NCBI GenBank assembly: GCA_947588685.1
Contig: CANPYM010000005.1
Location: 298 to 64,297, forward strand
Reading direction: 5' to 3'
Source: an uncultured Bacilli bacterium
GTDB lineage: Bacteria > Bacillota_I > Bacilli_A > RF39 > UBA660
Length of the DNA stretch: 64,000 nucleotides
Under the pieces are notes generated by a model that saw only the letters and a program-made list of their open reading frames with translations, was not told the origin of the DNA and did not search any database. Positions 10,675 to 28,211 of this stretch are shown piece by piece. Numbering within the stretch: position 1 is the stretch's first letter; the number at the start of each line of letters is the position of its first letter. A program made the position numbers and the translations under genes.

Positions 10675-10677
10675 TAT

Positions 10678-10699: not shown

Positions 10700-10749
10700 G
10701 TGATATTAAAGCTCATATCTTCATAATATTAAATGATAGGAGAGATAAA

Positions 10750-12407: not shown

Positions 12408-12427
12408 ATAATTAAGTGGGTGATAAA

Positions 12428-13207
12428 ATGAATATCGGTGATATGGTTACACGTAATTCCCATAATAATGATATTGTTTTTACAATTGTTGATATTGATG
12501 ATGATGTCTATTATTTAAAAGGTATTAATGTCCGATTATATGCTGATAGTTTAGTTGATGATTTAGTTAAGTATGACAATAATGAAGATATTGAGGATGA
12601 AAAAGATTTTCAAGAACGGCTTAAAGAAGACGATGTCGATAGAAATAGTGAATATTTTTATTTACCGGGTAAGATTCTTCATATTGATGGTGACCGTGAC
12701 TATCTAAAAAGATGTTTAAATTACTATGAATCAAAAAATATTGCGGCTATCGGGTTTACGAAAAAAGAAGATGAAATAGCTAATGATATATATGCCTTAT
12801 TAGAAGAGTATCAACCTAATATTTTAGTTATAACAGGTCATGATGCTTACTATAAGAAAAAGGGAGGCTATGAAGAAGCATCGGCTTATAAGAATAGTAG
12901 TTTATTTATCGATGCGGTTAAAGAGGCTAGACGGTTTGAAAGTAGTCATCAAAAACTAATTGTCATTGCCGGTGCTTGCCAGTCTAACTATGAAGCTTTG
13001 ATTAAAGCGGGAGCTAACTTCGCCTCATCGCCTAAAAGGATTAATATTCATGCCCTAGATCCAGCTATTATTGCTGCTCATATGAGTCTTGCTGATACAA
13101 ATAAAGATATCAATTTAAAGGATATTATTGAACACACGAAATATGGCTCTGAAGGTATGGGGGGAATTATTACTAAAGGGACAATGTATACGGGGTATCC
13201 AAGATGA
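12428..13207 (+). CDS. yabG: sporulation-specific protease YabG
   Basis: Strong resemblance to B. subtilis YabG blocks: IGDMV.R, LPGK.LH.DGD..YLK.CL, ILVITGHDAY.K.KGG, GACQS..E.LI.AGANFASSP.R.NIHALDP. The start is moved to ATG 12428. Confidence 0.88.
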   Translation: MNIGDMVTRNSHNNDIVFTIVDIDDDVYYLKGINVRLYADSLVDDLVKYDNNEDIEDEKDFQERLKEDDVDRNSEYFYLPGKILHIDGDRDYLKRCLNYYESKNIAAIGFTKKEDEIANDIYALLEEYQPNILVITGHDAYYKKKGGYEEASAYKNSSLFIDAVKEARRFESSHQKLIVIAGACQSNYEALIKAGANFASSPKRINIHALDPAIIAAHMSLADTNKDINLKDIIEHTKYGSEGMGGIITKGTMYTGYPR

Positions 13208-13431
13208 ATGTCTATCAAATCAAAAAGTATTTAAAAAATAAAATTGGCGCTAAAGCTAAAATAAAATGTAATTTAGGTCGAAATAAATATGAAACATATA
13301 TTGTAACTTTAGATAAGCTTTATGATAATGTCTTCACTGTCATTGAAGAAAAGGAATATGGTCCGATTGTTAAGTGCTTTTCATATAATGATATTATGAT
13401 GCACCTGATTAGGATTGATTTTCATATTTAA
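13204..13431 (+). CDS. veg: Veg family protein
   Basis: 75 aa. IKK.L....G....I..N.GRNK......L...Y.NVF.......FSY.DI matches the Veg pattern. The yabG-veg adjacency is as in B. subtilis. ATGA overlap with yabG. Confidence 0.8.
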   Translation: MNVYQIKKYLKNKIGAKAKIKCNLGRNKYETYIVTLDKLYDNVFTVIEEKEYGPIVKCFSYNDIMMHLIRIDFHI

Positions 13432-13434
13432 ATG

Positions 13435-13443
13435 TGCTATAAT
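13435..13443 (+). promoter_or_regulatory. extended -10 promoter (TGcTATAAT) for ssrA
   Basis: TG at 13435-36 and TATAAT at 13438-43. A short leader hairpin (gttacttgaaa / tttcaagta..aac) lies before the mature 5' end. Confidence 0.55.
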
Positions 13444-13473
13444 CTTGTTACTTGAAAGATTTCAAGTAGTAAC

Positions 13474-13811
13474 GGGGTCGTCTAGTTTCGACGGATCTAC
13501 TGGTACTTAGATGGCAAGTCGGAGGTACACGTTAAGTACAACCCAAAAATAACTGGAAACAGATTTAATTTAGCCTTCGCTTAATAATTAGCAGGCGCTT
13601 CTTATAATCCTTCTCCCACGAGGAATATAAGAGGCTCAACTTTGTGGGATATATCATTATTATGCCTAAGGTAATGATGAATAAGTAGGCTCGCTAAAAA
13701 TTGGGTTGTTAGTTACTAACAATTTTTAGGACTTTTAATAACTAACTAAACTTGTAGAAGTCTAGGGGTTGGTATTTTCGGACATGGGTGCGATTCCCAT
13801 CGACTCCACCA
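13474..13811 (+). ncRNA. ssrA: tmRNA (SsrA)
   Basis: 5' GGGGTCGTCTAGTTTCGACGG and 3' ...GGACATGGGTGCGATTCCCATCGACTCCACCA form the tRNA-Ala-like acceptor/T-arm. The internal tag frame ...GGA AAC AGA TTT AAT TTA GCC TTC GCT TAA TAA (ends 13581, stops at 13582-13587) encodes ...GNRFNLAFA. Confidence 0.93.
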
Positions 13812-13821
13812 GTTTGTTAAC

Positions 13822-13850
13822 AAACTCTTATTTTATAAGAGTTTTTATTT
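13822..13850 (+). terminator. intrinsic terminator after ssrA
   Basis: aaactctta / taagagttt hairpin followed by TTTTTATTT. Confidence 0.7.
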
Positions 13851-13893
13851 TTATAAAAAAATGGTAGAATATAGGTAGTTGGATGGTGGTTAG

Positions 13894-14796
13894 ATGAATA
13901 ATATTGATTTAAATTTATATAAGACTTTTTATATCGTGGCTAAATGTAAAAGTTTTACGAAGGCGGCCGAGTTGTTATATATATCACAACCGGCAGTTAC
14001 GCAAGCAGTACGAAAGTTAGAAGAACAGTTAAATAATCGATTATTTGAAAGGACTTCAACGGGTGTCACTTTAACACCCGCAGGGGAAGTTGTCTACTAT
14101 TATGCGGAAACGATATATAATTTATCTGATGCCACATCAACCCTAACGGAAAAAATTAAAGCAAGTAAAATACGCTCAATTGATATTGGTGTTCCAACCC
14201 ATATTGGCGCCTTTTACTTTGTTAGATATTTAAAACAGTTTAATGACGCATATCCCAATGTTAAAATCAATATTATTAATAAAAAATCCGATGAGATGTT
14301 AAAGATGCTTCAAAAAAGAGAACTTGATATAGTTATTGATACAGATATGGATAATATTGACGACAAAACGATTAAAACTGAGCAAATACTAGAATTAGAA
14401 AGTTGTTTTGTTGGTAGTGAAAAATTTAAAAATGTATCTTTAAAAGGTACGATAAATGCCTTAGATTTAACTAAATATCCTTTGATATTACCTGGCAAAA
14501 CTACCACTAACCGCAAAGTTATAGATTTGTATTTTAAAAGAAGAAATATTGTTTTAAATCCTATTATTGAAGCAAACTCGTCATCAATTTCTAGAGGTAT
14601 CATTCATCAAGGAATTGGTATTGGTTGGATGATTAAAGATTTCGTTGAAGAAGACTTACAAAATGGAAGTTTATTTGAAATTAAAGTAGACATTGATCCA
14701 GTTATGATACCTCTTAGTGTTGCTTATCACAAAAAATTTGTGAGTGATGAGGTTAAAGCCTTTATTAAAATTTTAACGAAGAAAGAAAAAATCTAA
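13894..14796 (+). CDS. LysR-family transcriptional regulator
   Basis: N-terminal HTH_1 signature (L..F..VA...SFTKAAE.L.ISQPAVTQ.V..LE..L...LFER) plus a roughly 200-aa substrate-binding domain. Confidence 0.9.
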   Translation: MNNIDLNLYKTFYIVAKCKSFTKAAELLYISQPAVTQAVRKLEEQLNNRLFERTSTGVTLTPAGEVVYYYAETIYNLSDATSTLTEKIKASKIRSIDIGVPTHIGAFYFVRYLKQFNDAYPNVKINIINKKSDEMLKMLQKRELDIVIDTDMDNIDDKTIKTEQILELESCFVGSEKFKNVSLKGTINALDLTKYPLILPGKTTTNRKVIDLYFKRRNIVLNPIIEANSSSISRGIIHQGIGIGWMIKDFVEEDLQNGSLFEIKVDIDPVMIPLSVAYHKKFVSDEVKAFIKILTKKEKI

Positions 14797-14816
14797 AGAT
14801 GCTTTAGATTTTTTTT
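14790..14816 (+). terminator. intrinsic terminator after the LysR gene
   Basis: aatctaaag-atg-ctttagatt hairpin enclosing the stop codon, followed by T8. Confidence 0.75.
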
Positions 14817-14837
14817 GTTATAATTGAAACTTATAAC
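14816..14837 (+). promoter_or_regulatory. extended -10 promoter of the ten-gene operon, overlapped by a perfect 7-bp inverted repeat (candidate LysR operator)
   Basis: TGtTATAAT (TG 14816-17, TATAAT 14819-24). GTTATAA (14817-23)-N7-TTATAAC (14831-37) is a perfect dyad and a T-N11-A style site. Confidence 0.5.
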
Positions 14838-14902
14838 ATATAAATATTTGATATTGGTAATTTAAGAAAAATCATTATAAAATCAAATTAGGTGATGAAT
14901 AT

Positions 14903-15796
14903 ATGCAATTTAATGGTTATATAGATTTACATATTCATACTAATAATTCTGATGGTCAATTTTCTCCATCAGAAATAATTGAATTCGCTCAAAAAAGCGG
15001 AACTCAATTCATAGCTATCAGTGACCATGATAGTATAAATGGCCTAGAAGAATTTCATGAAAACTTGCCTGTTGATATGTTTGGTATTGATGCGGTGGAG
15101 TTTTCATCTTTTATTTTATTAAACAATCGTAAAATAAGACTTCATCTTTTAGGTTATGGCTTTGATACTAAAAATTATAAAATGGTATCGTTGTTAGACG
15201 AAATGCGTGAGAAACGTCTTAGTGCGCATCATAATTTATTAAGATTATTACAAGAACAAAATGTATGTTTATCTGATGAAAGTCTTGCTAAATTAGATCT
15301 CGAAAGATATTGTTGGTTTGACCGCGAGGTTATCAAATGTTTAGAGCAAGAACATTATTCACCATCGTTAATTTGCGAATACCGAAAATATTTTAAGGCG
15401 CATCGCTTTAGCTATGGTGACGATTATGATTTAGATATTAAAAGAGCTATTGAGACAATTAAAGCATCTGGCGGATATGCTATATTGGCTCATCCGATGG
15501 CTTATAAGTTAGATCGTGATGATGTCTCTAGCATTATTTTAAAGTTACTAACTTTCGGAATTGATGGCATTGAAGTATATCAATCTGATTGTTCTGATGC
15601 TGATAGTGACTATTTAAATGAAATCGCTACAAAATATTCTTTGCTATCATCAGTCGGTAGTGACTTTCATCGCCTTATAAATTCTGATGGAAGAATAATT
15701 GGCCGAGGCATTGATGATAATTTATGTCTTACAGAAACGTCGTTTGCTAATAAAGTATTAGAAAAGAAAATGGTTTTTAAAGGAGGTGCGAAGTGA
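14903..15796 (+). CDS. PHP-domain metal-dependent phosphoesterase (TrpH/YciV-like)
   Basis: DLHIHTNNSDG, AISDHDS, ILAHP, GSDFH: the canonical PHP His/Asp ligand set. Confidence 0.85.
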   Translation: MQFNGYIDLHIHTNNSDGQFSPSEIIEFAQKSGTQFIAISDHDSINGLEEFHENLPVDMFGIDAVEFSSFILLNNRKIRLHLLGYGFDTKNYKMVSLLDEMREKRLSAHHNLLRLLQEQNVCLSDESLAKLDLERYCWFDREVIKCLEQEHYSPSLICEYRKYFKAHRFSYGDDYDLDIKRAIETIKASGGYAILAHPMAYKLDRDDVSSIILKLLTFGIDGIEVYQSDCSDADSDYLNEIATKYSLLSSVGSDFHRLINSDGRIIGRGIDDNLCLTETSFANKVLEKKMVFKGGAK

Positions 15797-16272
15797 AAAT
15801 ATTTATATCGTGTCCTTTTACGGGACTATGTGATGATCATCGATATGAAGTTAAAGAAGAGTATAAAAAGTTTTTTAATCAATTAGTAGCTTTAATGGAA
15901 AAAATGCACTGTGAATATTATTTAGCTATTAAAAGGGAAAATTGGGGTTTAGATCATAAGGGACCAGAAGAGTGTACGAAAAGTGATTTTGAGGGCGTTA
16001 AGGATAGTGATATATTGATTATTATTCCTGGTAACAATATATCACAAGGAATCTCTGGTGGCGTTCATATTGAACTCGGCTGGGCATCAGCTATGCATAA
16101 AAAAATGTATATTTTACTAGAAGACAATTTCAAGTATTCACCAGTTTTACTAGGACTTAATACCCTAAGTCCTACAGAATATGTTCCATGTAATAGTTTT
16201 TTAGATAATCATATGTTAAAAATAATTAAAGAAATTATTGAAAAAGAAATAAAGTTAAGGTTGGGAGTGTAG
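15793..16272 (+). CDS. nucleoside 2-deoxyribosyltransferase-superfamily protein (NDT/DNPH1/BlsM-MilB-like fold)
   Basis: 159 aa. Begins with a beta-strand MKIFISCPF, and SGGVHIELGWA resembles the catalytic-Glu motif (..G...E.G.A) of the family. GTG start overlaps the upstream stop (GTGA). RBS aggagg. Confidence 0.6.
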   Translation: MKIFISCPFTGLCDDHRYEVKEEYKKFFNQLVALMEKMHCEYYLAIKRENWGLDHKGPEECTKSDFEGVKDSDILIIIPGNNISQGISGGVHIELGWASAMHKKMYILLEDNFKYSPVLLGLNTLSPTEYVPCNSFLDNHMLKIIKEIIEKEIKLRLGV

Positions 16273-16274
16273 AT

Positions 16275-17294
16275 ATGTATTTAAAATTAATTGATGAAAA
16301 AGGGGAAAAATTAAATAAGTTTTATGATAAGCCATTTTATGTATATTTATCATTATCAAATATGTGTAATGCCAATTGTGTTTTCTGTGATGTTAGAACT
16401 AATAAAGAAAAAAAATGTAGCATCGATGTAAAAAAATTAATTGATGAATTAGCTAGTATGGGAACACAATATATTCATTTTACGGGTGGTGGCGAACCAT
16501 TTGTCAATGATGATATTTTTACTTATTTAGAATATTGTACACAAAAAAATATCAAAATAATAATTATTTCGAATGGCTTAAATCTTGATGAAGATAAAAT
16601 TAAGCGGATGCAGGCATACAATATTCATACTATCTTCTTTTCACTTGATAGTCATTTACCGGAAATTCATGACCATTTGCGCCGGGTTGATGGTATATGG
16701 GATAAAGTGACTAGTAATATCAATCTAATAAAGAAGTATATGCCATCGGTTAAGATTGTTTTAAATCATGTTTTAAATCGTGAAAATATCGACGATTTTG
16801 ATAAGTTTATTAAATTAAAAGAAAAATATAATTTTGATTATATTAATCCTATTGTAATAAAAGACTATGATGAATTGTTTTTCACACCGGATCAAATTCA
16901 AAAATATAATGCTAACTTAGATTATTATTACGAATTATCTAAAAGTCTTGGTGTTGACTTTTTGGCAAGTAATATTAACTTTTTTAAGAAGGGTGTTAGT
17001 TCATTTGGAGATCGCTATAATAATATCGATTTAAAATGTGTTTATCCATCTTTTGTAGCTTTCATTGATGCGCCAACGGGATATGTTTATCCATGTGATT
17101 GCAGTATTCATCGGGATCGAACAATATATAAAATTGGAGAATTAAAAGAGCAATCATTTCAAGAAATATGGAATGGAAATAAAAGACGTATCTTAAAACT
17201 TAAATTATTGAATAGTGAGTTAGATTGTAAAACAAAATGTGATGAAGCTAATTGTGAGTTTAATAAGTACTATTTTGCGATGAAAGGGGAGTAA
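16275..17294 (+). CDS. radical SAM enzyme with C-terminal SPASM/twitch-type auxiliary Cys domain
   Basis: CNANCVFC (CxxxCxxC), GGGEP SAM-binding motif, C-x13-G-x4-C (CVYPSFVAFIDAPTGYVYPC), and CKTKCDEANC near the C-terminus. Confidence 0.85.
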   Translation: MYLKLIDEKGEKLNKFYDKPFYVYLSLSNMCNANCVFCDVRTNKEKKCSIDVKKLIDELASMGTQYIHFTGGGEPFVNDDIFTYLEYCTQKNIKIIIISNGLNLDEDKIKRMQAYNIHTIFFSLDSHLPEIHDHLRRVDGIWDKVTSNINLIKKYMPSVKIVLNHVLNRENIDDFDKFIKLKEKYNFDYINPIVIKDYDELFFTPDQIQKYNANLDYYYELSKSLGVDFLASNINFFKKGVSSFGDRYNNIDLKCVYPSFVAFIDAPTGYVYPCDCSIHRDRTIYKIGELKEQSFQEIWNGNKRRILKLKLLNSELDCKTKCDEANCEFNKYYFAMKGE

Positions 17295-17295
17295 T

Positions 17296-18417
17296 ATGCG
17301 AATCTTAGTGTCGGCTGAAAGCTTTGGATATGGACCTGTGACAACGGGGCTTAACGTTGTTAAAGAACTAAGAAAATATCCTGATGTTACTTTGGATTTT
17401 ATCGGTTCTGGTATAGCCTTAGAGCAAGCTAAATTAAGTGGCTATTTTCTTAATTTTTATGTATGTGATACATACGATTTAGATAGTTTAAGAAAATATA
17501 AGGATATTTTATCATCATACGATGCCTATTTATCGGCTGAAAATCTTAATGGAGCTATTTTTGCTTTAGAGAATGGATTATATAATACATATTATTTAGA
17601 TAATTTAATGTGGATGTGGGATAAAATACCACCAGAGCTTAATAATGTCAAAAAATATTTCATTTCCGAAATTATTCCTTGTCATCAAAATTTTGCGAGA
17701 ATTGGTAAAGCAATTAAAAATCCTGTTTTTGTAGGACCAATTCGCCAAGTGGAAACCAAAAAGTGCCCATCCCAAAATCAATTGATGATTAATATTGGTG
17801 GAGCGGAATCATTTTTACTTGATCATCATTTAATTGTTAATTTTTATGATAAGTTGATTAACGATATTTTAGAGGTTCCGGAACTAGAACGCTTTTCAAC
17901 TATAATTCTTTGTGGTGGGAGCCGTGTTATAAAAGGGATTAAATTAAAAGGTGGTAATCCAAAAGTAAAAAAATGTACCTTATCACATGATGAATATTTA
18001 AAAGAAATGGAAAAATCTAGTTATTGTATTATGGCATCGGGACTTGGCAATTTTATTGAAGCTGTTGGTAAAAACAAAAATATAATGTTTTTGCCGCCAA
18101 TTAATTATAGTCAGCTTCAACAACTTGAATACTATGAAGAAAACAAATTTGGCTTTGATATTATTAATTGGTCTGACTTTGATTTTTATGAGGATATTCC
18201 CAAATATTTAGATGAAGAAACGGGTGTGGCTTTAGTCACTTTAAATATAGAAAAATATATGCAACAAGATTATAAAGCTTTAATTCAAAATCTTGTTCGA
18301 AAATTTGTCGATAGCGATCAAGAATCTTTTTACAATGTTAGAAATAAATATGTTGAAAGATTTGATAAAGATGCTTCTTCAAAAATTGCTAAAATTATTT
18401 ATGAAGAAAATTGTTGA
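17296..18417 (+). CDS. GT-B fold glycosyltransferase-like protein (GT1/GT28-like)
   Basis: N-terminal MRILVSAESFGYGP (Rossmann start typical of GT1/MurG-like enzymes), a second Rossmann half (INIGGAES...ILCGGS...MASGLGNFIEA). No TM segments. Confidence 0.55.
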   Translation: MRILVSAESFGYGPVTTGLNVVKELRKYPDVTLDFIGSGIALEQAKLSGYFLNFYVCDTYDLDSLRKYKDILSSYDAYLSAENLNGAIFALENGLYNTYYLDNLMWMWDKIPPELNNVKKYFISEIIPCHQNFARIGKAIKNPVFVGPIRQVETKKCPSQNQLMINIGGAESFLLDHHLIVNFYDKLINDILEVPELERFSTIILCGGSRVIKGIKLKGGNPKVKKCTLSHDEYLKEMEKSSYCIMASGLGNFIEAVGKNKNIMFLPPINYSQLQQLEYYEENKFGFDIINWSDFDFYEDIPKYLDEETGVALVTLNIEKYMQQDYKALIQNLVRKFVDSDQESFYNVRNKYVERFDKDASSKIAKIIYEENC

Positions 18418-18426
18418 GGTGATGGT

Positions 18427-19614
18427 ATGATAATACCTAATGATCCTTTTTTAGGAACACATTATATTGGTAAAGAAGAGCAAAAGGCCGCTCGCGAAGT
18501 ACTAAAAAGTAAAAGTTTATTTCGTTATCACGGCCCTAATTTACTATATAAGACTGATGAATTTGAAAAAAATATGGCTAAATATTTAGGCGTTAAATAT
18601 GTTTTAGCTTGTTCAAATGGCGCTGCGGCTATTAAATTAGCTTGTATAGCAAATGATATTGGTCCTGGTGATGAAGTTTTGATGTCGCCTTTTACTTTTA
18701 TCGCATCAGCAAGTAGTGTTTTAGCTTGTGGAGCCGTACCAAAGTTTGTTGATATTGATGAGAGTATGAATATTGACCCATTACAAATTGAAAAGAATAT
18801 TTCGCCACAGACGAAAGCCATTTTAGTTATTCATATGCAGGGTCAACCATGTGATATGCGAAAAATTATGGCCGTGGCAAAGAAATATAAACTAGTTGTT
18901 ATTGAAGATACAGCGCAAGCTCTAGGATCAGAAATTAATGGTAAGAAAGCTGGAACAATAGGAAATTGTGGAGCCTTTAGCTTACAAGCAGGCAAAACAA
19001 TTACATGTGGTGAGGGTGGCTTTTTAGCTACTAATAATAAGACTTTGTATGAAAGAGCTAAAATGTATCATGACAATGGTGGTTACCGCATCGGATGTGA
19101 TTATCCAACTTGGGAAAATGGCAAAACGATTTTTGGTGAAAACTTTAAATTAACCGAACTTCAAAGTGCTATAGCTAATGAGCAGTTGAAGAAGATTAAT
19201 AAAATATTAAAACGTCAAAAACAAGTATATAATTATATTACTCAAAAAATTGATCTTGATTTTTATCATTTACGTCCCGCTCCTAAACATAGTGAGTTAG
19301 TTTATTCTAATATATCTTTTATTTTTAAAACGGAACAAGAATGTCAAAAATTTATCAAATATATGAATGATCGAGGCATTAATTTTAACATTTATTGTAG
19401 TAATTTAATCAATCAATTTGATACTTTCAAATATCAACAATCTTGGCATCATTCCCATTTTCCATACAATATATCTAAATATCAAAGTTCAAAGTGTCCT
19501 AAGGCGCAATCTTTATTTAAAAGAGTAGCTTGGTTTAGTCTATCGGCATCTTTAAAAAAGAAACATCTAAAGTATATTGTTAAGTGTTTAGAGGATTATA
19601 AGAATGAATTTTAG
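18427..19614 (+). CDS. DegT/DnrJ/EryC1/StrS-family PLP-dependent aminotransferase
   Basis: Blocks SNGAAAIKLA, VIEDTAQALGSE..GKKAGT.G..GAFSLQAGKTITCGEGG, with the PLP lysine in the SLQAGK context. Confidence 0.88.
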   Translation: MIIPNDPFLGTHYIGKEEQKAAREVLKSKSLFRYHGPNLLYKTDEFEKNMAKYLGVKYVLACSNGAAAIKLACIANDIGPGDEVLMSPFTFIASASSVLACGAVPKFVDIDESMNIDPLQIEKNISPQTKAILVIHMQGQPCDMRKIMAVAKKYKLVVIEDTAQALGSEINGKKAGTIGNCGAFSLQAGKTITCGEGGFLATNNKTLYERAKMYHDNGGYRIGCDYPTWENGKTIFGENFKLTELQSAIANEQLKKINKILKRQKQVYNYITQKIDLDFYHLRPAPKHSELVYSNISFIFKTEQECQKFIKYMNDRGINFNIYCSNLINQFDTFKYQQSWHHSHFPYNISKYQSSKCPKAQSLFKRVAWFSLSASLKKKHLKYIVKCLEDYKNEF

Positions 19615-20446
19615 TACATCATCCCTTTGGATAAATTCTCTTGCCTTAAGATACCCACTCGATAAAATTCAAAAAATCGGTCGGTTATATTTTTATTTAG
19701 AAAATAACCTTTTAAAATGCCAACACTTTTTTTCCTTTGATATCAATGATGGTGAGTTAGACGAACTAAAAAAACAAATATCCCTTCACCGAAAAATTAG
19801 ATTTAATTATCTTGATGATTCGTCCTTACTTCTAAAATTACAAAAATGGGCTTGTGAAAATCATTTTGTTTATGAAGTTATTGATAGTTGGGAAGCTCCA
19901 AAATTATATTTAAATGATAGTATCAGTGCTTATTTAAAAAATAATAGTAATTCTCAAATAAAAAGAAATTATCAATATTATTTGAAAAATAGAGATCAGT
20001 ATCATTTTTATAATTCGGATGATACTGAGGCTTTAAAGTTATGGAATTATGTCCTTGATATTGATTTTAAATCATGGAAATATCAAGAACATTCTGATAT
20101 GAAAAGCTTAAATCGTGAAGATTTACAATATTTACCATATCTACTAATAAATAAAAAAAATAGCAGTCTAATTGTTATGTGTGATAAAAACGATGTAGCT
20201 CTAGCATATTCTTTAATGTTTAAAAGTGAAGATGACCTTTGGTATGCTGTAAAATGGGGCGCATCAACATTAGGTAGAAAAAATTATGCGGGTATTTTAT
20301 GCTTATTTCAACATTTAGAATATTTAGAACAAAAAGATGGATATATTAATTTGGACTTTTGGGGTCGAAGAAGTCAAGTATATGATTATTTAAAAAATGG
20401 AAGTATCATTAGAAAACATATCCTTATTTATCAAAAGGAGGAGTAG
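19604..20446 (+). CDS. FemAB-like / GNAT (Acetyltransf_6-type) acyl- or aminoacyl-transferase
   Basis: SQIKRNYQYYLKN and C-terminal LDFWGRR..VYDYLKNG resemble BioF2-like/FemAB-like GNAT domains. Overlaps the upstream gene by 11 nt. Confidence 0.5.
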   Translation: MNFSTSSLWINSLALRYPLDKIQKIGRLYFYLENNLLKCQHFFSFDINDGELDELKKQISLHRKIRFNYLDDSSLLLKLQKWACENHFVYEVIDSWEAPKLYLNDSISAYLKNNSNSQIKRNYQYYLKNRDQYHFYNSDDTEALKLWNYVLDIDFKSWKYQEHSDMKSLNREDLQYLPYLLINKKNSSLIVMCDKNDVALAYSLMFKSEDDLWYAVKWGASTLGRKNYAGILCLFQHLEYLEQKDGYINLDFWGRRSQVYDYLKNGSIIRKHILIYQKEE

Positions 20447-20447
20447 A

Positions 20448-21410
20448 ATGCATATTAGTTTAGGTTGCATTGATGAAATACCTAATTTTAATGAACAAGT
20501 TGATAATAGTTTTAATGGAACTTGCTTTGCTTATGATTGGTTTTTAAAATTAAAAAAAAGCAATCAAATTTTAAAAATCTATGATGAAAAAAATATTTTA
20601 CAAGGATTTATGCCTCTTTTCATAAGTGAAGAAAAGGATAAGATTAATCAAAGTACAATGTATATTCCATATGGTGGGCCAGTCATTTTTAAATTACCAA
20701 GTGAAGAGCGTCATAAAATTAGATATTTAAGAGCGCTTGAAAAAGCTTTGTGTCAGTATCTTCAAGCTAATTATGATGAAGTTAATTTTTCAACTGATAA
20801 TAGTATTATAGATATTATGCCTTTTATTCGGATGGGTTTTACTCCGGAAGTTAGGTATACCTATAAGTTAGATTTATCCCGTGGCCTTAAAAACATTTAT
20901 AACGGCTTTGGTCATGACCGTAAAAAAGACATTCGTAAAGCTCTTAAGAGAAATGTGGAATTTATTCCTGATCAAACGATGCAATATTTTGATGTATCTA
21001 AGGCTATGAAATGGGAAAAAAATTATGGTCCAACCTCATCGGTAGATTTTGTTACTGATTATATTCATGCGACTATTAAAAACAATCGAGGTATGTGCTT
21101 TGTTGCGAAAGAAAATGGTGAAGTTATTGGCGGCGTTCATATCGCTTGGGATAAGAAAGTTGCTTATATTTTATATTCTTATTATGAAAGACAAAAGGAT
21201 GATATTGCCATTGCTTATATATACTATAAAATGTTTGAATATTTAATTGATAACAATATTGTAGGTTATGTTGATTTTGAAGGATCTGTCTTTGAAGAGA
21301 TTGAAGATTGGAATATTTCTTTTGGAGCTTACCAAAGTAGATTTTATAATCTTCATTGGAATCATCAAAATGAACCATATTTAAATCTTTATGATTATGG
21401 AGGAAAGTAA
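20448..21410 (+). CDS. FemAB-like / GNAT (Acetyltransf_6-type) acyl- or aminoacyl-transferase, second copy
   Basis: Start reassigned to ATG 20448 (RBS aaggagg, 1 nt after the upstream stop). GHDRKKDIRKALKRNVEF and YVDFEGS....IEDWNISFGA resemble the FemAB-like fold. Confidence 0.5.
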   Translation: MHISLGCIDEIPNFNEQVDNSFNGTCFAYDWFLKLKKSNQILKIYDEKNILQGFMPLFISEEKDKINQSTMYIPYGGPVIFKLPSEERHKIRYLRALEKALCQYLQANYDEVNFSTDNSIIDIMPFIRMGFTPEVRYTYKLDLSRGLKNIYNGFGHDRKKDIRKALKRNVEFIPDQTMQYFDVSKAMKWEKNYGPTSSVDFVTDYIHATIKNNRGMCFVAKENGEVIGGVHIAWDKKVAYILYSYYERQKDDIAIAYIYYKMFEYLIDNNIVGYVDFEGSVFEEIEDWNISFGAYQSRFYNLHWNHQNEPYLNLYDYGGK

Positions 21411-21411
21411 T

Positions 21412-22143
21412 ATGAAAATGTCACGCCAAAAAATATTAGCGTTAATGTATGATTTTTATAATGAAAATACTTTAAAGGGTCAAAATGACGATATTCCGTA
21501 TTATATTGAACAAATAAAAAAATATAACGCTAAAAAAATATTAGTTGTTGGAGCAGGTACCGGTCGGGTTGCTATTCCACTAGCTAATTATGCTGAAGTT
21601 ACGGCTTTAGACTTTGATTCGTCAAGATTAGAAATATTGCTAGAAAGGAATCCTCAAATAAAAACCATTAATGCTAATTTTCTAGAATTTGAAACTAGTG
21701 AGCATTATGATTTAATTATTATTCCTTATAGTACATTACAATTTGCTAATGATACATCTAACCCTAATCGATTTTTAGAACATCTAAGAAAAGCTATGGA
21801 CACCGATTCGTTAGCTATATTTGATGTATCAGAAAGCTTTAATACTAAGCCAAATTGTGATAGGAAGTTACTATTTACAAATTATTGTGAAACGGTTGAC
21901 GATGATGTAAGTGTCTACTATTCGTCTAAAAGATATGATGAGTATATTGCTTTTGTGATTGAGTATCAATTACAAAAACATAAGAAAACATTTTTAGAAA
22001 AAGAAAAATATTATTATTATGATCCAAAATTGTTGACAAAATTAATTGGTGAGAATGCTTTAGAACTTATTAAAATTGACAATGGCTATGGCAAGCCAGG
22101 CTTTAATCATAAACACTTATATCACTGTAGGAGGAAGTTATGA
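21412..22143 (+). CDS. class I SAM-dependent methyltransferase
   Basis: Motif I ILVVGAGTGRVAIPLA, acidic post-I LDFD, and DLIIIPYSTLQF. Start at ATG 21412 behind RBS ggagga. Confidence 0.8.
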   Translation: MKMSRQKILALMYDFYNENTLKGQNDDIPYYIEQIKKYNAKKILVVGAGTGRVAIPLANYAEVTALDFDSSRLEILLERNPQIKTINANFLEFETSEHYDLIIIPYSTLQFANDTSNPNRFLEHLRKAMDTDSLAIFDVSESFNTKPNCDRKLLFTNYCETVDDDVSVYYSSKRYDEYIAFVIEYQLQKHKKTFLEKEKYYYYDPKLLTKLIGENALELIKIDNGYGKPGFNHKHLYHCRRKL

Positions 22144-23021
22144 AAGAGTTTGATGGTCAATATGTAACTATAATGTCGTGTTCAGACTGTAATACGAAAT
22201 GTAAACATTGCTACGTATCATATAAAGGTAATTTTAGTGGTCAAAAGTTATATGATTTAGCTTCAAAACTTAAAGATAAATATGAACTTAACATTAACGG
22301 TACTGAGGTTTTGTTGCATGAAGATTTCTTTGATACATATAATTTAATTGGCCAAAGACGTCTTTTGTCTAATGGGATTATCATTCATACGAATCCAAGT
22401 ATAATTGATAAGATTAAAAAGAGTAGTATTGAGATGGTAGCGATGTCGTATCACTTTGTTATTCAAAATGACATTTCTAGTGTTTCTAATAAATTGTTAG
22501 AAGATAATATTAAAGTGTTGACGAATGAAGGTATCAAAGTTGAACTTATGTGTACTGTTACCAAAGATAACTATGATAAAATAATTCAAATATGTGATGC
22601 CGTTCATCATTTAGGTGTTAAAAAAGTTCGTTTTATCAACTATTTAAAAACTGGTAATGCGACTAAACTAAGTGATAGTAATGTTCTAACTGATGAACAA
22701 AAGAAGATTTTTTTTGAACAGTTAAATATTGCTCGTGAAAAGTATGATAAAGATGAATTACTTATTAAGAGGTGTGGTAGCTTTGGATATGATCATCAAC
22801 ATAAGTGTCATTTTAATTGCCCAGCAGGGATTAATAAGGTTGTTATTGCGCCCGATTTATATGTCTATCCTTGTATTTATATGGTTAAGCCAGAATATCG
22901 AATTGGTTATGTCCGGGATGGTAAAGTATATCTTGATAAACAGATTGTTCATCATCAGGACCGTTGTTTAGCTAGTGATTGTTATAATAAGAATGTGAAA
23001 GTTGTAATGCAAGATATATGA
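22140..23021 (+). CDS. radical SAM enzyme with twitch/SPASM-like C-terminal Cys motif (second copy)
   Basis: CNTKCKHC (CxxxCxxC) at residues 17-24. C-terminal CHFNCPAGINKVVIAPDLYVYPC and CLASDC. Shares the YVYPC block with the 16275 gene. ATGA overlap upstream. Confidence 0.8.
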   Translation: MKEFDGQYVTIMSCSDCNTKCKHCYVSYKGNFSGQKLYDLASKLKDKYELNINGTEVLLHEDFFDTYNLIGQRRLLSNGIIIHTNPSIIDKIKKSSIEMVAMSYHFVIQNDISSVSNKLLEDNIKVLTNEGIKVELMCTVTKDNYDKIIQICDAVHHLGVKKVRFINYLKTGNATKLSDSNVLTDEQKKIFFEQLNIAREKYDKDELLIKRCGSFGYDHQHKCHFNCPAGINKVVIAPDLYVYPCIYMVKPEYRIGYVRDGKVYLDKQIVHHQDRCLASDCYNKNVKVVMQDI

Positions 23022-23998
23022 GAGAAGAAAACTTAAAGTTAGCCTCAAAATTAGCTTCAAAGTTTAATAAGAAATATGGGGTGATAACTTATTCCGGTAC
23101 ACTAGCTATTGAACTTGCTTTAATCAGCTTGAATTTGAGAAAGAAAGCTAAAGTTTTGGTTATGTCCGAAACTTGCTATTCCATCATTAATACCATTTTA
23201 AAATTAGATTTAATCCCGGTTATTTTAGAAACTGAAAATAAATTATATTTGACCGATGAGGATGTATTGGACGTTTTAGAACATCAACAAATTGACTGTT
23301 TATTTTTAGTTCATCAATATGGCATCATAAATAAGATTAATACGAAAGAATACCAAGATAGGGGAATTAAAATTATTGAAGATATGGCCCAAGTTTGGGA
23401 TATCAATAATGATTATTATCAATGTGGACAATATAGCGATATTGTAACAACTTCTTTTGGTAAAACTAAACCATTAAGTTATGGTATTGGTGGGGGATTA
23501 TTTTTTAATGATAAAGATCTTTTAAAAAATGTTGATTATAGCGATAATGAAAGCCGTGAAAATAATGCTATTTTACTATCCTATACCTATCCATTATGCG
23601 AAAATATTAATTATGATAATCTAGTAGAACTTGGTAAACAAAACACCCATATTCAAAGATCTAATGCCCTTAAATATTATAAATTATTTCAAAAATATCA
23701 TTTCATCAACTGTCTTCCATATGGTGAAGATGTGAAAAATACTTGGCATCGTTTTCCTATTTGGATTGATGATAAAAAGATATATGATAAGTTTGTCGAA
23801 GAAGCCACTAAACATAATTTGGCCTTTCAACTATTTCATGATATTGACTTGTTTTCTTTAAAACGAAATCAAAATGCTATTCAAATTCATCGTAATCGTC
23901 ATAAAACTAATTATATATTACTAAGAACACGTAATATTGATATAGATAAACAATTAGCTATTTTAAATACAATAATTGAAATAGTGCTTAATGCTTAA
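23018..23998 (+). CDS. divergent, short DegT-like PLP-dependent enzyme
   Basis: YSGTLAIELALISL, IIEDMAQVW, and TTSFGKTKPLSYGIGGG (Lys in the SFGKTK context) parallel DegT blocks. Only 326 aa. ATGA overlap upstream. Confidence 0.6.
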   Translation: MREENLKLASKLASKFNKKYGVITYSGTLAIELALISLNLRKKAKVLVMSETCYSIINTILKLDLIPVILETENKLYLTDEDVLDVLEHQQIDCLFLVHQYGIINKINTKEYQDRGIKIIEDMAQVWDINNDYYQCGQYSDIVTTSFGKTKPLSYGIGGGLFFNDKDLLKNVDYSDNESRENNAILLSYTYPLCENINYDNLVELGKQNTHIQRSNALKYYKLFQKYHFINCLPYGEDVKNTWHRFPIWIDDKKIYDKFVEEATKHNLAFQLFHDIDLFSLKRNQNAIQIHRNRHKTNYILLRTRNIDIDKQLAILNTIIEIVLNA

Positions 23999-24003
23999 TT
24001 TTA

Positions 24004-24012
24004 TGTTATAAT
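24004..24012 (+). promoter_or_regulatory. extended -10 promoter (TGtTATAAT) upstream of the ABC-F gene
   Basis: TG at 24004-05 and TATAAT at 24007-12, only 5 nt after the stop of the preceding operon. No hairpin/T-run lies between them. Confidence 0.5.
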
Positions 24013-24047
24013 GTAGGTGGTTTTACCTTTGGAAAGAGGTGATTATA

Positions 24048-25703
24048 ATGATCGAAGTAAGTGTTAATAATGCCGAGAAGAGTTTCGGCTTTAAAAAAGT
24101 TTTAGATGGCTTTAGTTTAGAAGCTATGACTGGTGAACGGATTGCCTTAATTGGACCAAATGGTTGTGGCAAAACGACGCTATTTAAAATCATTGCTGGT
24201 GAAGAAAACTTAGATAAGGGAAACGTTTCGATAAGACGTGAGGCTAGAGTTGGTAAGTTGTCACAAATGCCACCTACTGTTAGCGATGATGTCACAGTTA
24301 GAGATGTTTTATTAAAAGAGTTTAAAGAATTGTTTGAGATTGAAAAAAGGTTACAAGCTTATGAAGAAGAACTTGCTTCAACCTCACCAGAAAAAATGAA
24401 TGCCATTCTTAATGCTTACGGAAAATTACAAGAACGTTTTTCTAATATGGGTGGCTATGAAATAGATGAAAAAGTAAGTAAAATTTGTACAGGTTTTAAA
24501 ATATCTGGGGAAATGTTAAATCGAACTTTCAATACTTTATCAGGAGGCGAAAAGACAATTGTCAGTTTAGCTTCTTTAATTATCAGTAATCCCGATGTTT
24601 TACTATTAGATGAACCAACTAACCATTTGGATATTGATACATTAGAATGGTTTGAACAATTTTTAACTAATTATAAAGGAACAATAATTATTAGTTCGCA
24701 CGATCGTTATTTTTTAGATAGAGTTGTTACAAAAACTGTTCTCATTGACCATGGTAAGGCTGATGTTTATCACGGCAATTATTCTTATTTTTTAGAAGAG
24801 AGCGATCGCCGAGCTTTAGCGGAATTTGATGAATATAAAAATCAACAAAAGCAAATTGAAGCTATGAAAGCCGCTGTAAAAAAATTAAGAGAGTGGGGCG
24901 AAAGAGGCGATAATCCTAGATTCTTTCGTCGGGCTGCTTGTATTGAACGTAAGTTAGAAAAAATGCAAGTCTTAGAACGTCCTGAGGCCAAGAAACAGTT
25001 ACCACTAGATTTTGAGATTGATGGACGCTCTGGTAAAGATGTTTTAGTTGTTCAAAATTTAGGAATTATTATTGACGATAAAATTATTTTAGATAATGCT
25101 GATCTATATTTAAGATATGGTGAAAAAGTATGCTTAATGGGTAAAAATGGTACCGGTAAGTCAACTTTTGTTCAAGCTGTTTTATTTGGTGACCATGTAT
25201 GTGGTGGGACCATCAAAATTGGAAGTAATGTCCAAATCGGTTATATCCCACAAGAGATTGTTTTTGATGATGAAAGAGCTACTATCCTCGATGTCGCTAG
25301 AAGTGTTTATGAAGGAACTGAAACCCATCTTCGAGCTTCTTTAGCTAAATTCCTTTTCTATGGTGAGAATGTTTTCAAAAGAGTTGGCAAATTATCCGGT
25401 GGTGAAAAGGTACGACTAAAATTGTTTGAGTTAATTCAAAAACGAGCTAACTTATTAATTTTAGATGAACCAACTAACCATATTGATATTGATACTAAAG
25501 AGATGTTAGAAGAGGCTCTTAGTGAATATCAAGGAACATTATTTTTTATTTCTCATGACCGCTATTTTATTAATAAATTAGCTGAAAGAGTTGTTAACAT
25601 TGAAGACCAAGGTTTCCATGAATATTTAGGAAATTATGATTATTATAAAAAACAAAAAACGAAAACTTTAGTAGCTTCATCTCCAACGCCCAAAAGAAAG
25701 TAG
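24048..25703 (+). CDS. ABC-F family ATPase (two NBDs, no TM domain); translation factor or ribosome-protection type
   Basis: Walker A GPNGCGKTT and GKNGTGKST. Signatures LSGGEKT and LSGGEKV. Walker B LLLDEPTNHLD and LILDEPTNHID. Charged inter-NBD linker (QQKQIEAMKAAVKKLREWGERG...). Start moved to ATG 24048. Confidence 0.88.
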   Translation: MIEVSVNNAEKSFGFKKVLDGFSLEAMTGERIALIGPNGCGKTTLFKIIAGEENLDKGNVSIRREARVGKLSQMPPTVSDDVTVRDVLLKEFKELFEIEKRLQAYEEELASTSPEKMNAILNAYGKLQERFSNMGGYEIDEKVSKICTGFKISGEMLNRTFNTLSGGEKTIVSLASLIISNPDVLLLDEPTNHLDIDTLEWFEQFLTNYKGTIIISSHDRYFLDRVVTKTVLIDHGKADVYHGNYSYFLEESDRRALAEFDEYKNQQKQIEAMKAAVKKLREWGERGDNPRFFRRAACIERKLEKMQVLERPEAKKQLPLDFEIDGRSGKDVLVVQNLGIIIDDKIILDNADLYLRYGEKVCLMGKNGTGKSTFVQAVLFGDHVCGGTIKIGSNVQIGYIPQEIVFDDERATILDVARSVYEGTETHLRASLAKFLFYGENVFKRVGKLSGGEKVRLKLFELIQKRANLLILDEPTNHIDIDTKEMLEEALSEYQGTLFFISHDRYFINKLAERVVNIEDQGFHEYLGNYDYYKKQKTKTLVASSPTPKRK

Positions 25704-25711
25704 GAAATGAT

Positions 25712-26488
25712 ATGAAATTCAATTATGATTTAACAACTAACGTATCTTCCTTTTTAGATAATAGTGCATTAGAAGAAATCGGGATTGGTTGTTCTTCTTC
25801 ACAGGTTATTAAGATTACAAAAGATACGGATGAATATTATTTGAAAATGGCTAAAAAAGGATTGCTTACTAAAGAGTATGAAAAATTAAAATGGCTTGCT
25901 GGCAAATTAGATGTTCCCCAAGTTATTTTATATGAAACAAGTGAAGATGCTGAATTTTTAATAACAAAAGCGATACCAGGACAAATGGTATGTGATGATT
26001 ATTTTCTTAAGAATCCTGAATTAGGTCTTAAAGTTATTGCTGAAGCTTTTAAGAAAATCTATAGCGTTGATATAAAAGATTGCCCTTTTGATACATCGAT
26101 TGATTATAAATTAGCGTTAGTTAATGATAATGTTAGAAAGGGCCTTATTAAGGAAGAAAATATCAAGAAAGAAGTCTTAGAAAAATATGGTAGTATCGAT
26201 AACATTTTAAGTTATTTAAATATTAATAAGTTTTATGAACCATTATGTTTTTCGCATGGCGATACAAGTCTACCTAATATTTTTGCTTTAAATAATCATT
26301 TTAGTGGCTTTATTGATGTTGGTGAATGTGGCATAGCTGATAAATGGTTTGATCTTGCTATTTGTGAAAAATCTATTAGAAGAAACTATGGCGATGAATA
26401 TGTTAAAGCCTTTTGTCAAGAATTAGGTATTACTCCTGATCAAGATAAGATTGATTATTATCTATTAATGATGGAATTATATTTATAA
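25712..26488 (+). CDS. aminoglycoside 3'-phosphotransferase-like kinase (APH(3') family)
   Basis: Collinear resemblance to APH(3')-IIIa: YYLKM, W.L.GKL.VP.V, CPF (DI.DCP), FSHGD...NIF catalytic loop, SGFIDVG..GIADKW.DLA.C..SI, KI.YY.L..EL at the C-terminus. Confidence 0.85.
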   Translation: MKFNYDLTTNVSSFLDNSALEEIGIGCSSSQVIKITKDTDEYYLKMAKKGLLTKEYEKLKWLAGKLDVPQVILYETSEDAEFLITKAIPGQMVCDDYFLKNPELGLKVIAEAFKKIYSVDIKDCPFDTSIDYKLALVNDNVRKGLIKEENIKKEVLEKYGSIDNILSYLNINKFYEPLCFSHGDTSLPNIFALNNHFSGFIDVGECGIADKWFDLAICEKSIRRNYGDEYVKAFCQELGITPDQDKIDYYLLMMELYL

Positions 26489-26511
26489 AGTACCATTAGG
26501 TACTTTTTTTT
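26487..26511 (+). terminator. strong intrinsic terminator closing the accessory block
   Basis: aaagtacc-atta-ggtacttt hairpin followed by T8. It is the first convincing terminator after 14816. Confidence 0.8.
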
Positions 26512-26541
26512 ATTTATGCTATAATGAAGATGGAGGAGAAT

Positions 26542-28149: not shown

Positions 28150-28211
28150 AACTATCTTTTCTTTTCGTTAAAAATGCGTTATAATAATTAGCAACATTTT
28201 GAGGTGATAAT

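Follow-up and report, generated by a model that had tools for sequence, protein, structure and literature searches.

Cytosyl-pyranoside nucleoside antibiotics such as blasticidin S, mildiomycin, and gougerotin are known almost solely from actinomycetes. The bls, mil, arg, and gou clusters of Streptomyces share the same core, which consists of a cytidine monophosphate (CMP) N-glycosidase (BlsM/MilB), a GT1 glycosyltransferase (BlsD/MilC), a radical S-adenosylmethionine (SAM) enzyme (BlsE/MilG/ArgF), and a pyridoxal phosphate (PLP)-dependent enzyme of the DegT family. In these pathways BlsD/MilC and BlsE/MilG act consecutively, and the cytosylglucuronic acid (CGA) synthase joins UDP-glucuronate and free cytosine (PMC3715490). 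Cytosine nucleosides of this class, for example blasticidin S, act at the peptidyl-transferase center (PMC5572114). Here, we describe a gene cluster from an uncultured Bacilli bacterium (assembly GCA_947588685.1), located in a 64,000-nucleotide stretch of contig CANPYM010000005.1 that is referred to as the window. The cluster spans window positions 13894 to 26506, from a LysR-family regulator gene to a terminator-like hairpin. With moderate confidence, we read it as a LysR-controlled pathway for an aminated, N-acylated hexopyranosyl-cytosine antibiotic with ribosome-directed self-immunity, in which the acyl groups of the product are probably aminoacyl.

Among solved or curated proteins, those nearest to proteins 2, 3, and 4 of the cluster belong to blasticidin-type pathways (PMC3715490, PMC4081090). 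An earlier note on this stretch had proposed a glycosyl-nucleobase-type molecule, and this interpretation is supported in that the nearest characterized homologs belong to cytosine-nucleoside and pyrimidine-antimetabolite pathways and not to cell wall or capsule pathways. Compared with the Streptomyces clusters, the glycosyltransferase and radical SAM enzyme found here are remote, scoring far below the equivalog cutoffs. The cluster lacks an ATP-grasp ligase, an arginine aminomutase, and a guanidino-methyltransferase and has two tandem-GNAT enzymes instead. The cluster also has two DegT-type enzymes, its candidate immunity genes encode an ABC-F protein and an APH(3′) kinase, and its host belongs to an uncultured low-GC, spore-forming gut Bacilli lineage rather than to the actinomycetes. 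Fem/MprF-like enzymes have not been described together with an ABC-F/APH(3′) pair. Because its biosynthesis follows the logic of an established class, the system is not categorically new.

Two other described systems bear on this locus. BcmB, from the bacimethrin pathway of Clostridium botulinum, is the best solved homolog of protein 2 and likewise comes from a low-GC Gram-positive anaerobe (PMC4081090); its pathway lacks the sugar and acyl-transfer enzymes seen in the cluster described here. The earlier note had held such molecules to be essentially undescribed in low-GC bacteria. That statement holds in part: we found no cytosine-nucleoside cluster of this type described from Firmicutes or from the gut microbiome in the searchable literature, but BcmB is a characterized homolog from such an organism, and bagougeramines are known compounds of Bacillus circulans. 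In the A201A cluster, the ABC-F protein Ard1 provides narrow-spectrum self-resistance to a nucleoside (PMC10201436). That cluster sets a transmembrane (TM)-less ABC-F and an O-phosphotransferase against a nucleoside that binds the peptidyl-transferase center, and a similar predicted pair is found here. Ard2 is the A201A phosphotransferase, and Hyg28 and Hyg21 are a comparable pair in hygromycin A. The pair described here differs from that of A201A in that its ABC-F falls in no named antibiotic resistance (ARE) subfamily and its kinase is of the APH(3′) type.

Gene organization and the predicted cytosine-sugar core

Coordinates are window positions, and features lie on the plus strand unless stated otherwise. 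The earlier note had described a ten-gene operon between 14903 and 23998, and its ten open reading frames (ORFs) are all present. Their junctions range from −11 to +9 nucleotides (nt), as it had claimed, after two start corrections guided by ortholog lengths. Gene 7 starts at 20448 and not at 20397, one base past the gene 6 stop, and encodes 320 amino acids (aa); gene 8 probably starts at 21412 rather than at 21391. The operon does not end at 23998, however, since an ABC-F gene (24048 to 25703, callable from a GTG at 24039) and an APH(3′)-family gene (25712 to 26488) follow after gaps of 40 and 8 nt. The full unit is a 12-gene operon of ten enzymes, ABC-F, and APH, with the LysR-family gene (13894 to 14796; Pfam HTH_1 and LysR_substrate) directly upstream.

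A plus-strand terminator scan found nothing convincing within 14903 to 23998, the sole candidate being a 5-bp stem at 19494. Between 13 and 30 kb, just one hairpin convincingly resembles an intrinsic terminator, an 8-bp stem followed by a T8 run at 26487 to 26506, where it overlaps the APH stop. No TM-like segment is present in any product (maximum Kyte-Doolittle 19-residue mean, 1.58), and family searches found no nucleotidyltransferase, 4,6-dehydratase, flippase, polymerase, or initiating transferase in or adjoining the unit (13894 to 26488). The earlier statements on these three points thus hold. Among the families that the note had assigned, PHP, Nuc_deoxyrib_tr, radical SAM with SPASM, DegT, and methyltransferase are matched directly, and the GT-B fold is seen in an AlphaFold2 (AF2) model.

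Gene 2 (15793 to 16272) encodes a predicted cytosine-releasing CMP N-glycosidase of the MilB/BlsM/BcmB type. Protein 2 scores 32.7 bits against Pfam PF05014 (cutoff, 28.8). Compared with all PDB sequences, its only matches at an E value of ≤1 are BcmB (4JEN, 5.8e-25), BlsM (5VTO, 1e-16), and MilB (4JEM, 7e-16); DNPH1, LOG, and true deoxyribosyltransferases are absent at that threshold, so that the grouping with LOG or DNPH1 that the earlier note had named as damaging to its proposal is not seen. In MilB, the substrate-binding and cleaving residues are F22, E62, D78, S97, G99, and E103, the last being the catalytic glutamate (PMC4081090). Their equivalents in protein 2 (F9, E49, D65, S88, G90, and E94) are invariant in eight orthologs. 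An Arg or Lys at the MilB-23 position marks enzymes that are specific for hydroxymethyl-CMP (hmCMP) and linked to a ThyA-like hydroxymethylase; BcmB, which prefers hmCMP, has a Lys there and such a linkage (PMC4081090). Protein 2 differs on both counts and falls outside the hmCMP-specific subgroup: the equivalent position 10 is T, S, or A in the orthologs, and family searches found no ThyA/MilA-like hydroxymethylase gene in the cluster. These two observations lead to CMP as the predicted substrate and free cytosine as the predicted product.

Gene 4 (17296 to 18417) encodes a GT-B, GT1-like glycosyltransferase that appears to be a distant relative of the CGA synthases. Protein 4 has no Pfam match, and a profile search against PDB sequences returned nothing. 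Looking up its exact sequence gave no record. Its sole NCBIfam match is TIGR04467, hydroxymethylcytosylglucuronate/cytosylglucuronate synthase (30.5 bits; E value, 2e-7). The same model is matched by all 27 sampled members of the glycosyltransferase family, at best with 3.7e-12, and no other family competes. The AF2 model (predicted local distance difference test [pLDDT], 93.2) has a GT-B fold, and its top Foldseek matches are GT1 enzymes, namely, plant UGTs, OleD/OleI, CalG1/2, GtfB/D, and YjiC/YojK. MurG appears at rank 33, which places the model nearest to small-molecule GT1 enzymes and not with the MurG-type lipid-linked enzymes that the earlier note had seen as a possible objection.

Gene 3 (16275 to 17294; Pfam Radical_SAM and SPASM) encodes a BlsE-like radical SAM/SPASM enzyme with the motifs CNANCVFC (CX3CX2C) and GGGEP. 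The best PDB sequence match of protein 3 is BlsE (7VOB/7VOC, "cytosylglucuronate decarboxylase"; 9e-14), followed by SkfB (3e-8). BlsE carries a Met where protein 3 has a Phe in the motif (PMC3715490). Gene 5 (18427 to 19614) encodes a DegT/DnrJ/EryC1 PLP aminotransferase (PF01041, 302.9 bits, 4.5e-90) with a SLQAGK lysine and an EDTAQ motif; no other biosynthetic gene is as well conserved (66 to 80% identity). Taken together, proteins 2 to 5 appear from their sequences to be the four-part core of the blasticidin and mildiomycin pathways, in remote versions.

The remaining enzymes would act around this core. Gene 10 (23018 to 23998) encodes a second DegT-like PLP enzyme (PF01041, 82.6 bits, 4e-23) that has a short N terminus, as noted earlier, and keeps the PLP lysine (SFGKTK) together with an EDMAQ motif. 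Its best PDB match is 7KZ3, and scyllo-inosose aminotransferases are among its matches. Gene 1 (14903 to 15796), present in all orthologous clusters, encodes a PHP-family phosphoesterase (Pfam PHP) of the TrpH/YciV or nucleoside 3′,5′-bisphosphate phosphatase type. Protein 1 resembles nucleoside 3′,5′-bisphosphate phosphatases and the 5′-3′ exoribonuclease TrpH (best PDB matches, 9ETK, 2YB1, and 7UG9), with subthreshold NCBIfam matches to RNase RNM and pAp phosphatase. Two genes are accessory. Gene 8 (21412 to 22143, with the alternative start mentioned above) encodes a class I SAM methyltransferase (Pfam Methyltransf_25/12/11) and is missing from loci L001 and L011 (compared loci are designated by L numbers). 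Gene 9 (22140 to 23021) encodes the second radical SAM enzyme that the earlier note had recognized, with a CNTKCKHC (CX3CX2C) motif and six cysteines in its Cys-rich C terminus; it has only subthreshold NCBIfam radical SAM/SPASM matches and was found only in the window, L009, L010, L020, and L085.

A LysR ortholog lies directly upstream of the PHP gene wherever the contig reaches that far. In the alignment of the LysR-PHP intergenic regions, a dyad at 14817 to 14837, GTTATAA-N7-TTATAAC (T-N11-A), has TATAA/TTAT columns that are invariant in six divergent loci, and it looks like a LysR binding site. The promoter had earlier been placed at 14816 to 14824, a segment that is part of this dyad and is more likely the regulator site. 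Blocks resembling −35 and −10 elements (TTGGTA ... TAAAAT/TATAAA in a consensus scan) are conserved across the compared loci near 14854 to 14883, which is probably where the operon promoter lies.

Distribution of the cluster and candidate immunity genes

The distribution of the cluster was explored with the glycosyltransferase, ABC-F, and APH as queries against one genome per species (GTDB representatives). The cluster was found in 19 species-representative genomes with the same gene set and order, at 35 to 82% aa identity. All 19 carriers are uncultured low-GC metagenome-assembled genomes (MAGs) labeled Bacilli, "Tenericutes," or Erysipelotrichaceae, and some were recovered from the guts of rabbits, goats, and other animals, whereas others belong to human-gut collections (HGM10825, MGYG-HGUT-04029, and UMGS1045). 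The invariant order is LysR, PHP, glycosidase, radical SAM, glycosyltransferase, DegT, GNAT, GNAT, DegT-like, ABC-F, and APH. The methyltransferase and second radical SAM genes vary, being present, missing, or moved between clusters, and some clusters have extra genes: an unknown gene of 190 to 200 aa, a Ham1 nucleotide pyrophosphatase, or a class I/II aminotransferase. The glycosyltransferase and protein 6 families are wholly unannotated, and the distinctive proteins are recorded as hypothetical. Flanking genes are unrelated between loci. This sporadic distribution, with unrelated flanks and absence from the closest relative, differs from the universal conservation as core glycan machinery that the earlier note had said would contradict its proposal.

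An ORF of 189 to 202 aa without a family lies between the PHP and glycosidase genes in L004 (7922 to 8491), L003, L006, L008, and L009 (6989 to 7597); the window has none. In L009 (14890 to 15501) and L011 (16551 to 17162), a gene of the Ham1 family (noncanonical nucleoside triphosphate pyrophosphatases) is found just before ABC-F, and it may clear a toxic nucleotide analog.

The two genes at the end of the operon are candidates for self-protection, ABC-F by ribosome protection and APH by inactivation of the product. ABC-F has two ABC_tran domains and an ABC_tran_Xtn domain, intact Walker A, Walker B, and signature motifs, and no TM domain; it scores 443 bits against NF000355, "ribosomal protection-like ABC-F" (cutoff, 380). 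APH scores 223.1 bits against NF033068 (cutoff, 205), with intact HGDTSLPN and IDVG motifs, and it matches APH(3′)-IIIa in the PDB (3e-38). Both genes have the orientation of the operon and extend, after a conserved extended −10 element, up to the sole good terminator. This element (TGTTATAAT, 24004 to 24012) was identified by cross-locus alignment, in which T.TG.TATAAT is invariant before ABC-F in all six loci compared. With this conserved element in front of them, ABC-F and APH can probably be expressed on their own, without the biosynthetic genes.

Genomic context argues more strongly for immunity than these matches do. ABC-F homologs of at least 64% identity were found solely immediately upstream of APH, the next best reaching 43% (185,579 species genomes). 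APH is found in three nested configurations: within the full cluster in 19 species genomes, with ABC-F alone in three (L019/L069, L087, and L088), and by itself in nine, where at least 6 kb of upstream sequence is free of cluster genes. In a neighbor-joining tree, orphan and pair-only APHs are interspersed with cluster-linked ones, some being nearly identical. Upstream of the stand-alone ABC-F and APH of L019, at about 800 to 6613, there are genes for a guanylate-kinase-like protein, a metallophosphoesterase, a DUF402 protein, two radical SAM enzymes, and a GT2 glycosyltransferase. This set may be another nucleotide-related pathway that uses the same immunity pair.

The closest relative, L043 (rabbit MAG Lapin-004 bin25), lacks the segment 13852 to 25695 and keeps the promoter and APH; its relatedness was recognized through Lon and the flanking sequences. 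Its flanks align with window 13139 to 13851 (98.9% nt identity) and 25696 to 26614 (96.4%), with about 170 nt between them, and its orphan APH is 96% identical and has the same element, TGTTATAAT, directly upstream. An 11.84-kb segment comprising LysR, the ten genes, and ABC-F is thus present in one strain and missing from the other, while the kinase gene stays.

Retention of APH, or of ABC-F and APH, without the pathway is as expected of immunity genes directed against the toxic product of relatives. A biosynthetic role for the kinase would also have a precedent. In the 3′,4′-dideoxygenation of gentamicin, a GenP-type APH phosphorylates the substrate before PLP-dependent elimination. An APH(3′)-family kinase beside PLP enzymes could act in a similar manner here, but its persistence as an orphan argues otherwise: the occurrence of APH alone in nine genomes without biosynthetic genes, together with its own conserved promoter, favors immunity over biosynthesis. 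The assignment of ABC-F and APH as an immunity pair is drawn from this genomic context and so remains putative.

Acyl transfer, the proposed pathway, and its alternatives

Gene 6 (19604 to 20446) and gene 7 (20448 to 21410) encode the two predicted acyltransferases. Protein 6 has no Pfam or NCBIfam match, Pfam also found nothing in all its orthologs, and none of its roughly 137 database relatives carries a name. The AF2 model is a tandem GNAT (pLDDT, 93.2) with a fold nearest to the MprF C-domain and FemX, the top Foldseek matches being 4V36, 5VRV, 4V35, and 4II9/1NE9. Of its 26 best structural matches, 19 are aminoacyl-tRNA-dependent enzymes (L-PGS, A-PGS, the MprF catalytic domain, and FemX), and the remaining seven are accounted for by two functionally uncharacterized structures (2HQY and 3FRM). 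Protein 7 (orthologs, 319 to 327 aa) matches the Fem-related Pfam family PF13480, Acetyltransf_6, with 23.6 bits (cutoff, 22), as do six of eight orthologs; a profile search against PDB sequences found no relative. The description of both proteins as FemAB-like in the earlier note therefore holds at the level of fold for protein 6, which is nearest to FemX/FemABX and MprF/L-PGS and has no sequence match to Pfam FemAB (PF02388) or the MprF C-domain (DUF2156), while protein 7 reaches PF13480 only.

Family searches found no ATP-grasp, nonribosomal peptide synthetase, or other amino-acid-activating enzyme in the cluster, and this makes aminoacyl-tRNA the most economical donor for the GNAT proteins. 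PacB of the pacidamycin pathway provides a precedent for an aminoacyl-tRNA-dependent transferase in a nucleoside antibiotic. A bona fide FemAB-family gene (36811 to 38079, minus strand; Pfam, 6.8e-83) is found elsewhere in the window, adjoining a LytR-CpsA-Psr gene (34718 to 36745, minus strand). These two genes are the real cell wall machinery of the organism and are unrelated to the GNATs of the cluster.

In the proposed pathway, the CMP N-glycosidase (gene 2) would convert CMP to cytosine and ribose-5-phosphate, and the GT1-type glycosyltransferase (gene 4) would join cytosine to an NDP-hexose or hexuronate in the manner of a CGA synthase. The radical SAM/SPASM enzyme (gene 3) would then oxidize, dehydrate, or decarboxylate the sugar to give a keto (or deoxy) intermediate, which the DegT enzyme of gene 5 would aminate; the enzyme of gene 10 would introduce a second amine or carry out a PLP-dependent elimination. 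In a fifth step, the products of genes 6 and 7 would N-acylate the amine or amines, with aminoacyl-tRNA as the most likely donor. Optional tailoring, which varies between congener clusters, would fall to genes 8 (methyltransferase) and 9 (second radical SAM enzyme). ABC-F would shield the ribosome of the producer, and the APH(3′)-type kinase would phosphorylate a sugar hydroxyl of the product or of an intermediate. The PHP protein (gene 1) may remove the phosphate added by the kinase at maturation or supply CMP from phosphorylated precursors. The first four steps, up to the amination, are reasonably well supported by homology, and acyl transfer is suggested by the predicted fold and by the absence of alternatives.

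Several observations weigh against this pathway. Protein 3 scores 59.6 bits against TIGR04466, the BlsE/MilG equivalog (cutoff, 400), several other SPASM families equal or outscore BlsE in hidden Markov model searches, and the 30.5 bits of protein 4 against TIGR04467 compare with a cutoff of 300, which places it outside the equivalog. The similarities of the glycosyltransferase and the radical SAM enzyme are remote, so that substrate identity cannot be transferred from them. The cluster has no UDP-glucose dehydrogenase gene, no exporter, and no amino-acid-modifying gene. L021 (rabbit MAG Lapin-021 bin68) is without the CMP glycosidase gene, with a 38-codon ORF in the gap at about 1027 to 1178; its cluster is either decaying or supplied with free cytosine from another source. 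In the distant variants L013 and L014, there is no CMP glycosidase within 10 kb. With regard to immunity, the similarity of ABC-F to its best PDB relatives, the housekeeping proteins YbiT, EttA, and Uup, is roughly equal to its similarity to the known resistance ABC-Fs. It falls outside every named ARE subfamily; the models for Msr, Vga, Lsa, Sal, OptrA, CplR, and the producer type all score far below their cutoffs. Members of the APH clade are also found well away from any cluster, and APH could be a general aminoglycoside-resistance gene that happens to lie beside the operon. Finally, acyl-coenzyme A (CoA)-dependent tandem GNATs (Eis and the clavulanate tandem GNAT) match the model of protein 6 from rank 27 onward, and pairwise hhalign comparisons among proteins 6 and 7 and the FemAB of the window were insignificant, with probabilities of 0.3%, 15%, and 0.1%.

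These last observations bear on the donor of the acyl groups. The product could be a cytosine amino-sugar nucleoside whose GNATs are acyl-CoA dependent, serving in tailoring or self-protection, in which case it would be N-acylated and not peptidyl. The generic GNAT matches of protein 7 (Acetyltransf_6 and, weakly, Acetyltransf_1), the presence of Eis2, 2WPW, and VipF in the Foldseek list of protein 6, and the nonsignificant profile comparison with the FemAB of the window are consistent with this. The first acyl-CoA enzyme, however, follows a set of 26 matches dominated by aminoacyl-tRNA-dependent enzymes, and two consecutive enzymes of tandem-GNAT size with no other amino acid activation fit stepwise aminoacyl transfer. 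We therefore take aminoacyl-tRNA dependence, as suggested by the structural model, to be the better inference, with an acyl-CoA role as an unlikely but serious alternative.

A pseudosaccharide of the aminoglycoside or aminocyclitol kind, made without a nucleobase in the style of butirosin or neomycin and with the nucleoside 2-deoxyribosyltransferase (NDT)-like protein 2 confined to salvage, appears improbable. 2-Deoxystreptamine pathways typically include DegT-type enzymes and radical SAM enzymes with auxiliary clusters, APH exceeds the cutoff of the APH(3′) family, the matches of protein 10 include scyllo-inosose aminotransferases among others, and one orthologous cluster is without the glycosidase. 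Nevertheless, the cluster has no 2-deoxy-scyllo-inosose synthase or inositol cyclase, and the glycosidase is present in all orthologous clusters that cover the position save L021, with its catalytic and cytosine-binding residues invariant. In addition, the only family link of the glycosyltransferase is to CGA synthase and the best solved relative of protein 3 is BlsE. We know of no ABC-F proteins that protect against aminoglycosides, which bind the 30S subunit.

The match of protein 2 to BcmB, its best in the PDB (PMC4081090), and the presence of a SAM methyltransferase would also fit a bacimethrin-like pathway in which the pyrimidine set free by the glycosidase would be methylated to yield a free-base antimetabolite, with a separate role for the sugar enzymes. 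This is very unlikely, given that there is no ThyA/MilA-like CMP hydroxymethylase or ThiD-like kinase, that the residue equivalent to MilB Arg23 and the BcmB Lys follows the T/S/A pattern of enzymes not linked to a hydroxymethylase, that the methyltransferase is dispensable in orthologous clusters, and that such a pathway offers no explanation for seven or more conserved enzymes acting on sugar and acyl groups.

A locus for the modification of a cell envelope glycan, teichoic acid, or flagellin sugar is highly improbable. It would account for the DegT enzymes scoring best against PseC, LegC, and WecE-type models, and genuine FemAB and LytR-CpsA-Psr genes do occur elsewhere in the window. However, all the DegT matches are below the equivalog cutoffs, no nucleotidyltransferase, flippase, polymerase, or membrane protein accompanies them, and the glycosyltransferase resembles small-molecule GT1 enzymes. 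The absence of the unit from the closest relative, its unrelated flanks elsewhere, and its linkage to ABC-F and APH argue in the same direction. Finally, an antiphage or nucleotide-depletion defense, with a viperin-like radical SAM enzyme and an enzyme that cleaves CMP at its center, is barely credible. Protein 3 does match PADLOC pVip with 78 bits and, with 72 bits, the prokaryotic viperin model of NCBIfam, and NDT-family nucleotide hydrolases are mentioned in defense systems in a preprint (bioRxiv 10.64898/2025.12.03.692087). However, the viperin score compares with a cutoff of 180 bits and reflects the generic radical SAM core only, protein 3 has a SPASM domain, no other protein matches a PADLOC defense family other than through generic ABC ATPase matches, and a ten-enzyme tailoring pathway with a glycosyltransferase, aminotransferases, and acyltransferases is no known defense architecture.

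If the cluster does direct the synthesis of an N-acylated hexopyranosyl-cytosine antibiotic, its product would be a new ribosome-inhibitor scaffold and would represent an undescribed antibiotic family in animal and human gut microbes, with congeners that differ by methylation and radical SAM tailoring. The enzymology would also be new, with a remote CGA-synthase clade and Fem/MprF-like ligases that act on a nucleoside. ABC-F and the kinase would be a new immunity pair already circulating alone among gut bacteria. A more specific possibility, which we advance tentatively and with some doubt, is that uncultured spore-forming Bacilli in the guts of rabbits, ruminants, and humans make an unprecedented family of tRNA-dependent peptidyl cytosine nucleoside translation inhibitors and live alongside immune nonproducers that have kept ABC-F and APH or APH by itself. 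In that case, ABC-F would found an ARE subfamily of its own, directed at cytosine nucleosides, and the APH(3′)-like protein would be a nucleoside-antibiotic kinase and a reservoir of resistance genes. This would amount to a natural polymorphism of producers and immune cheaters for a ribosome-targeting antibiotic inside the gut microbiome, and the pattern of producers versus immune nonproducers would make antibiotic-mediated competition among commensals testable.

Neighboring genes and related loci

A transfer-messenger RNA (tmRNA) gene lies just upstream of the cluster, at 13474 to 13811. What follows the tmRNA differs within the lineage, being the 12-gene cluster in the window, APH only in L043, and genes for a HAD hydrolase and an MFS transporter in L047. 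Integration of the cluster as an island at the tmRNA was considered and rejected, since there is no direct repeat of the tmRNA 3′ end, no integrase, and no other cluster near a tmRNA; site-specific integration is thus unsupported.

Downstream of the cluster, genes for proteins of about 500 aa (26524 to 31420) were considered as possible members and discarded, being conserved in L043, which lacks the cluster, and unrelated to the arrays of L007. Two of them (28212 to 31420) are ORFs of about 505 aa without a family match and are distant paralogs (23% identity; E value, 8e-11) that flank a tRNA-Gln gene (29796 to 29870). The neighboring ORF of 541 aa (26524 to 28149) has N-terminal TM segments. 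All of these are found in L043. In L007, from a rabbit MAG, arrays of 510- to 515-aa paralogs with pairs 52 to 88% identical lie on either side of the cluster (48 to 6362 and 18421 to 19968).

More distant loci share parts of the gene set. In the cultured Paenibacillus periandrae (L012; JAJNMU010000025.1, about 5070 to 20439), an NDT-family gene is found with a trio of radical SAM/SPASM, glycosyltransferase, and DegT genes. Further genes at this locus encode a class III aminotransferase, an aldo-keto reductase, a P-loop kinase, a GNAT, a second DegT enzyme, an arginase-fold protein, and a second radical SAM/SPASM enzyme. One might speculate that L012 opens the way to a producer that can be cultured, whose compound could resemble a bagougeramine. 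The more distant and abundant metagenomic variant of L013 and L014 has two modules of radical SAM/SPASM and DegT enzymes, a B12-binding radical SAM enzyme, and Acetyltransf_6, as well as a chloramphenicol-phosphotransferase-like kinase, NTP_transf_5, and an ABC exporter; its glycosyltransferase, P0118, was found on 53 contigs.

Sporulation genes encoding a SpoVID-N/LysM protein and a YabG protease are located in the window at 10750 to 13207. These genes indicate that the lineage is spore forming, although several related MAGs are labeled Tenericutes, Mollicutes, or Mycoplasmataceae.

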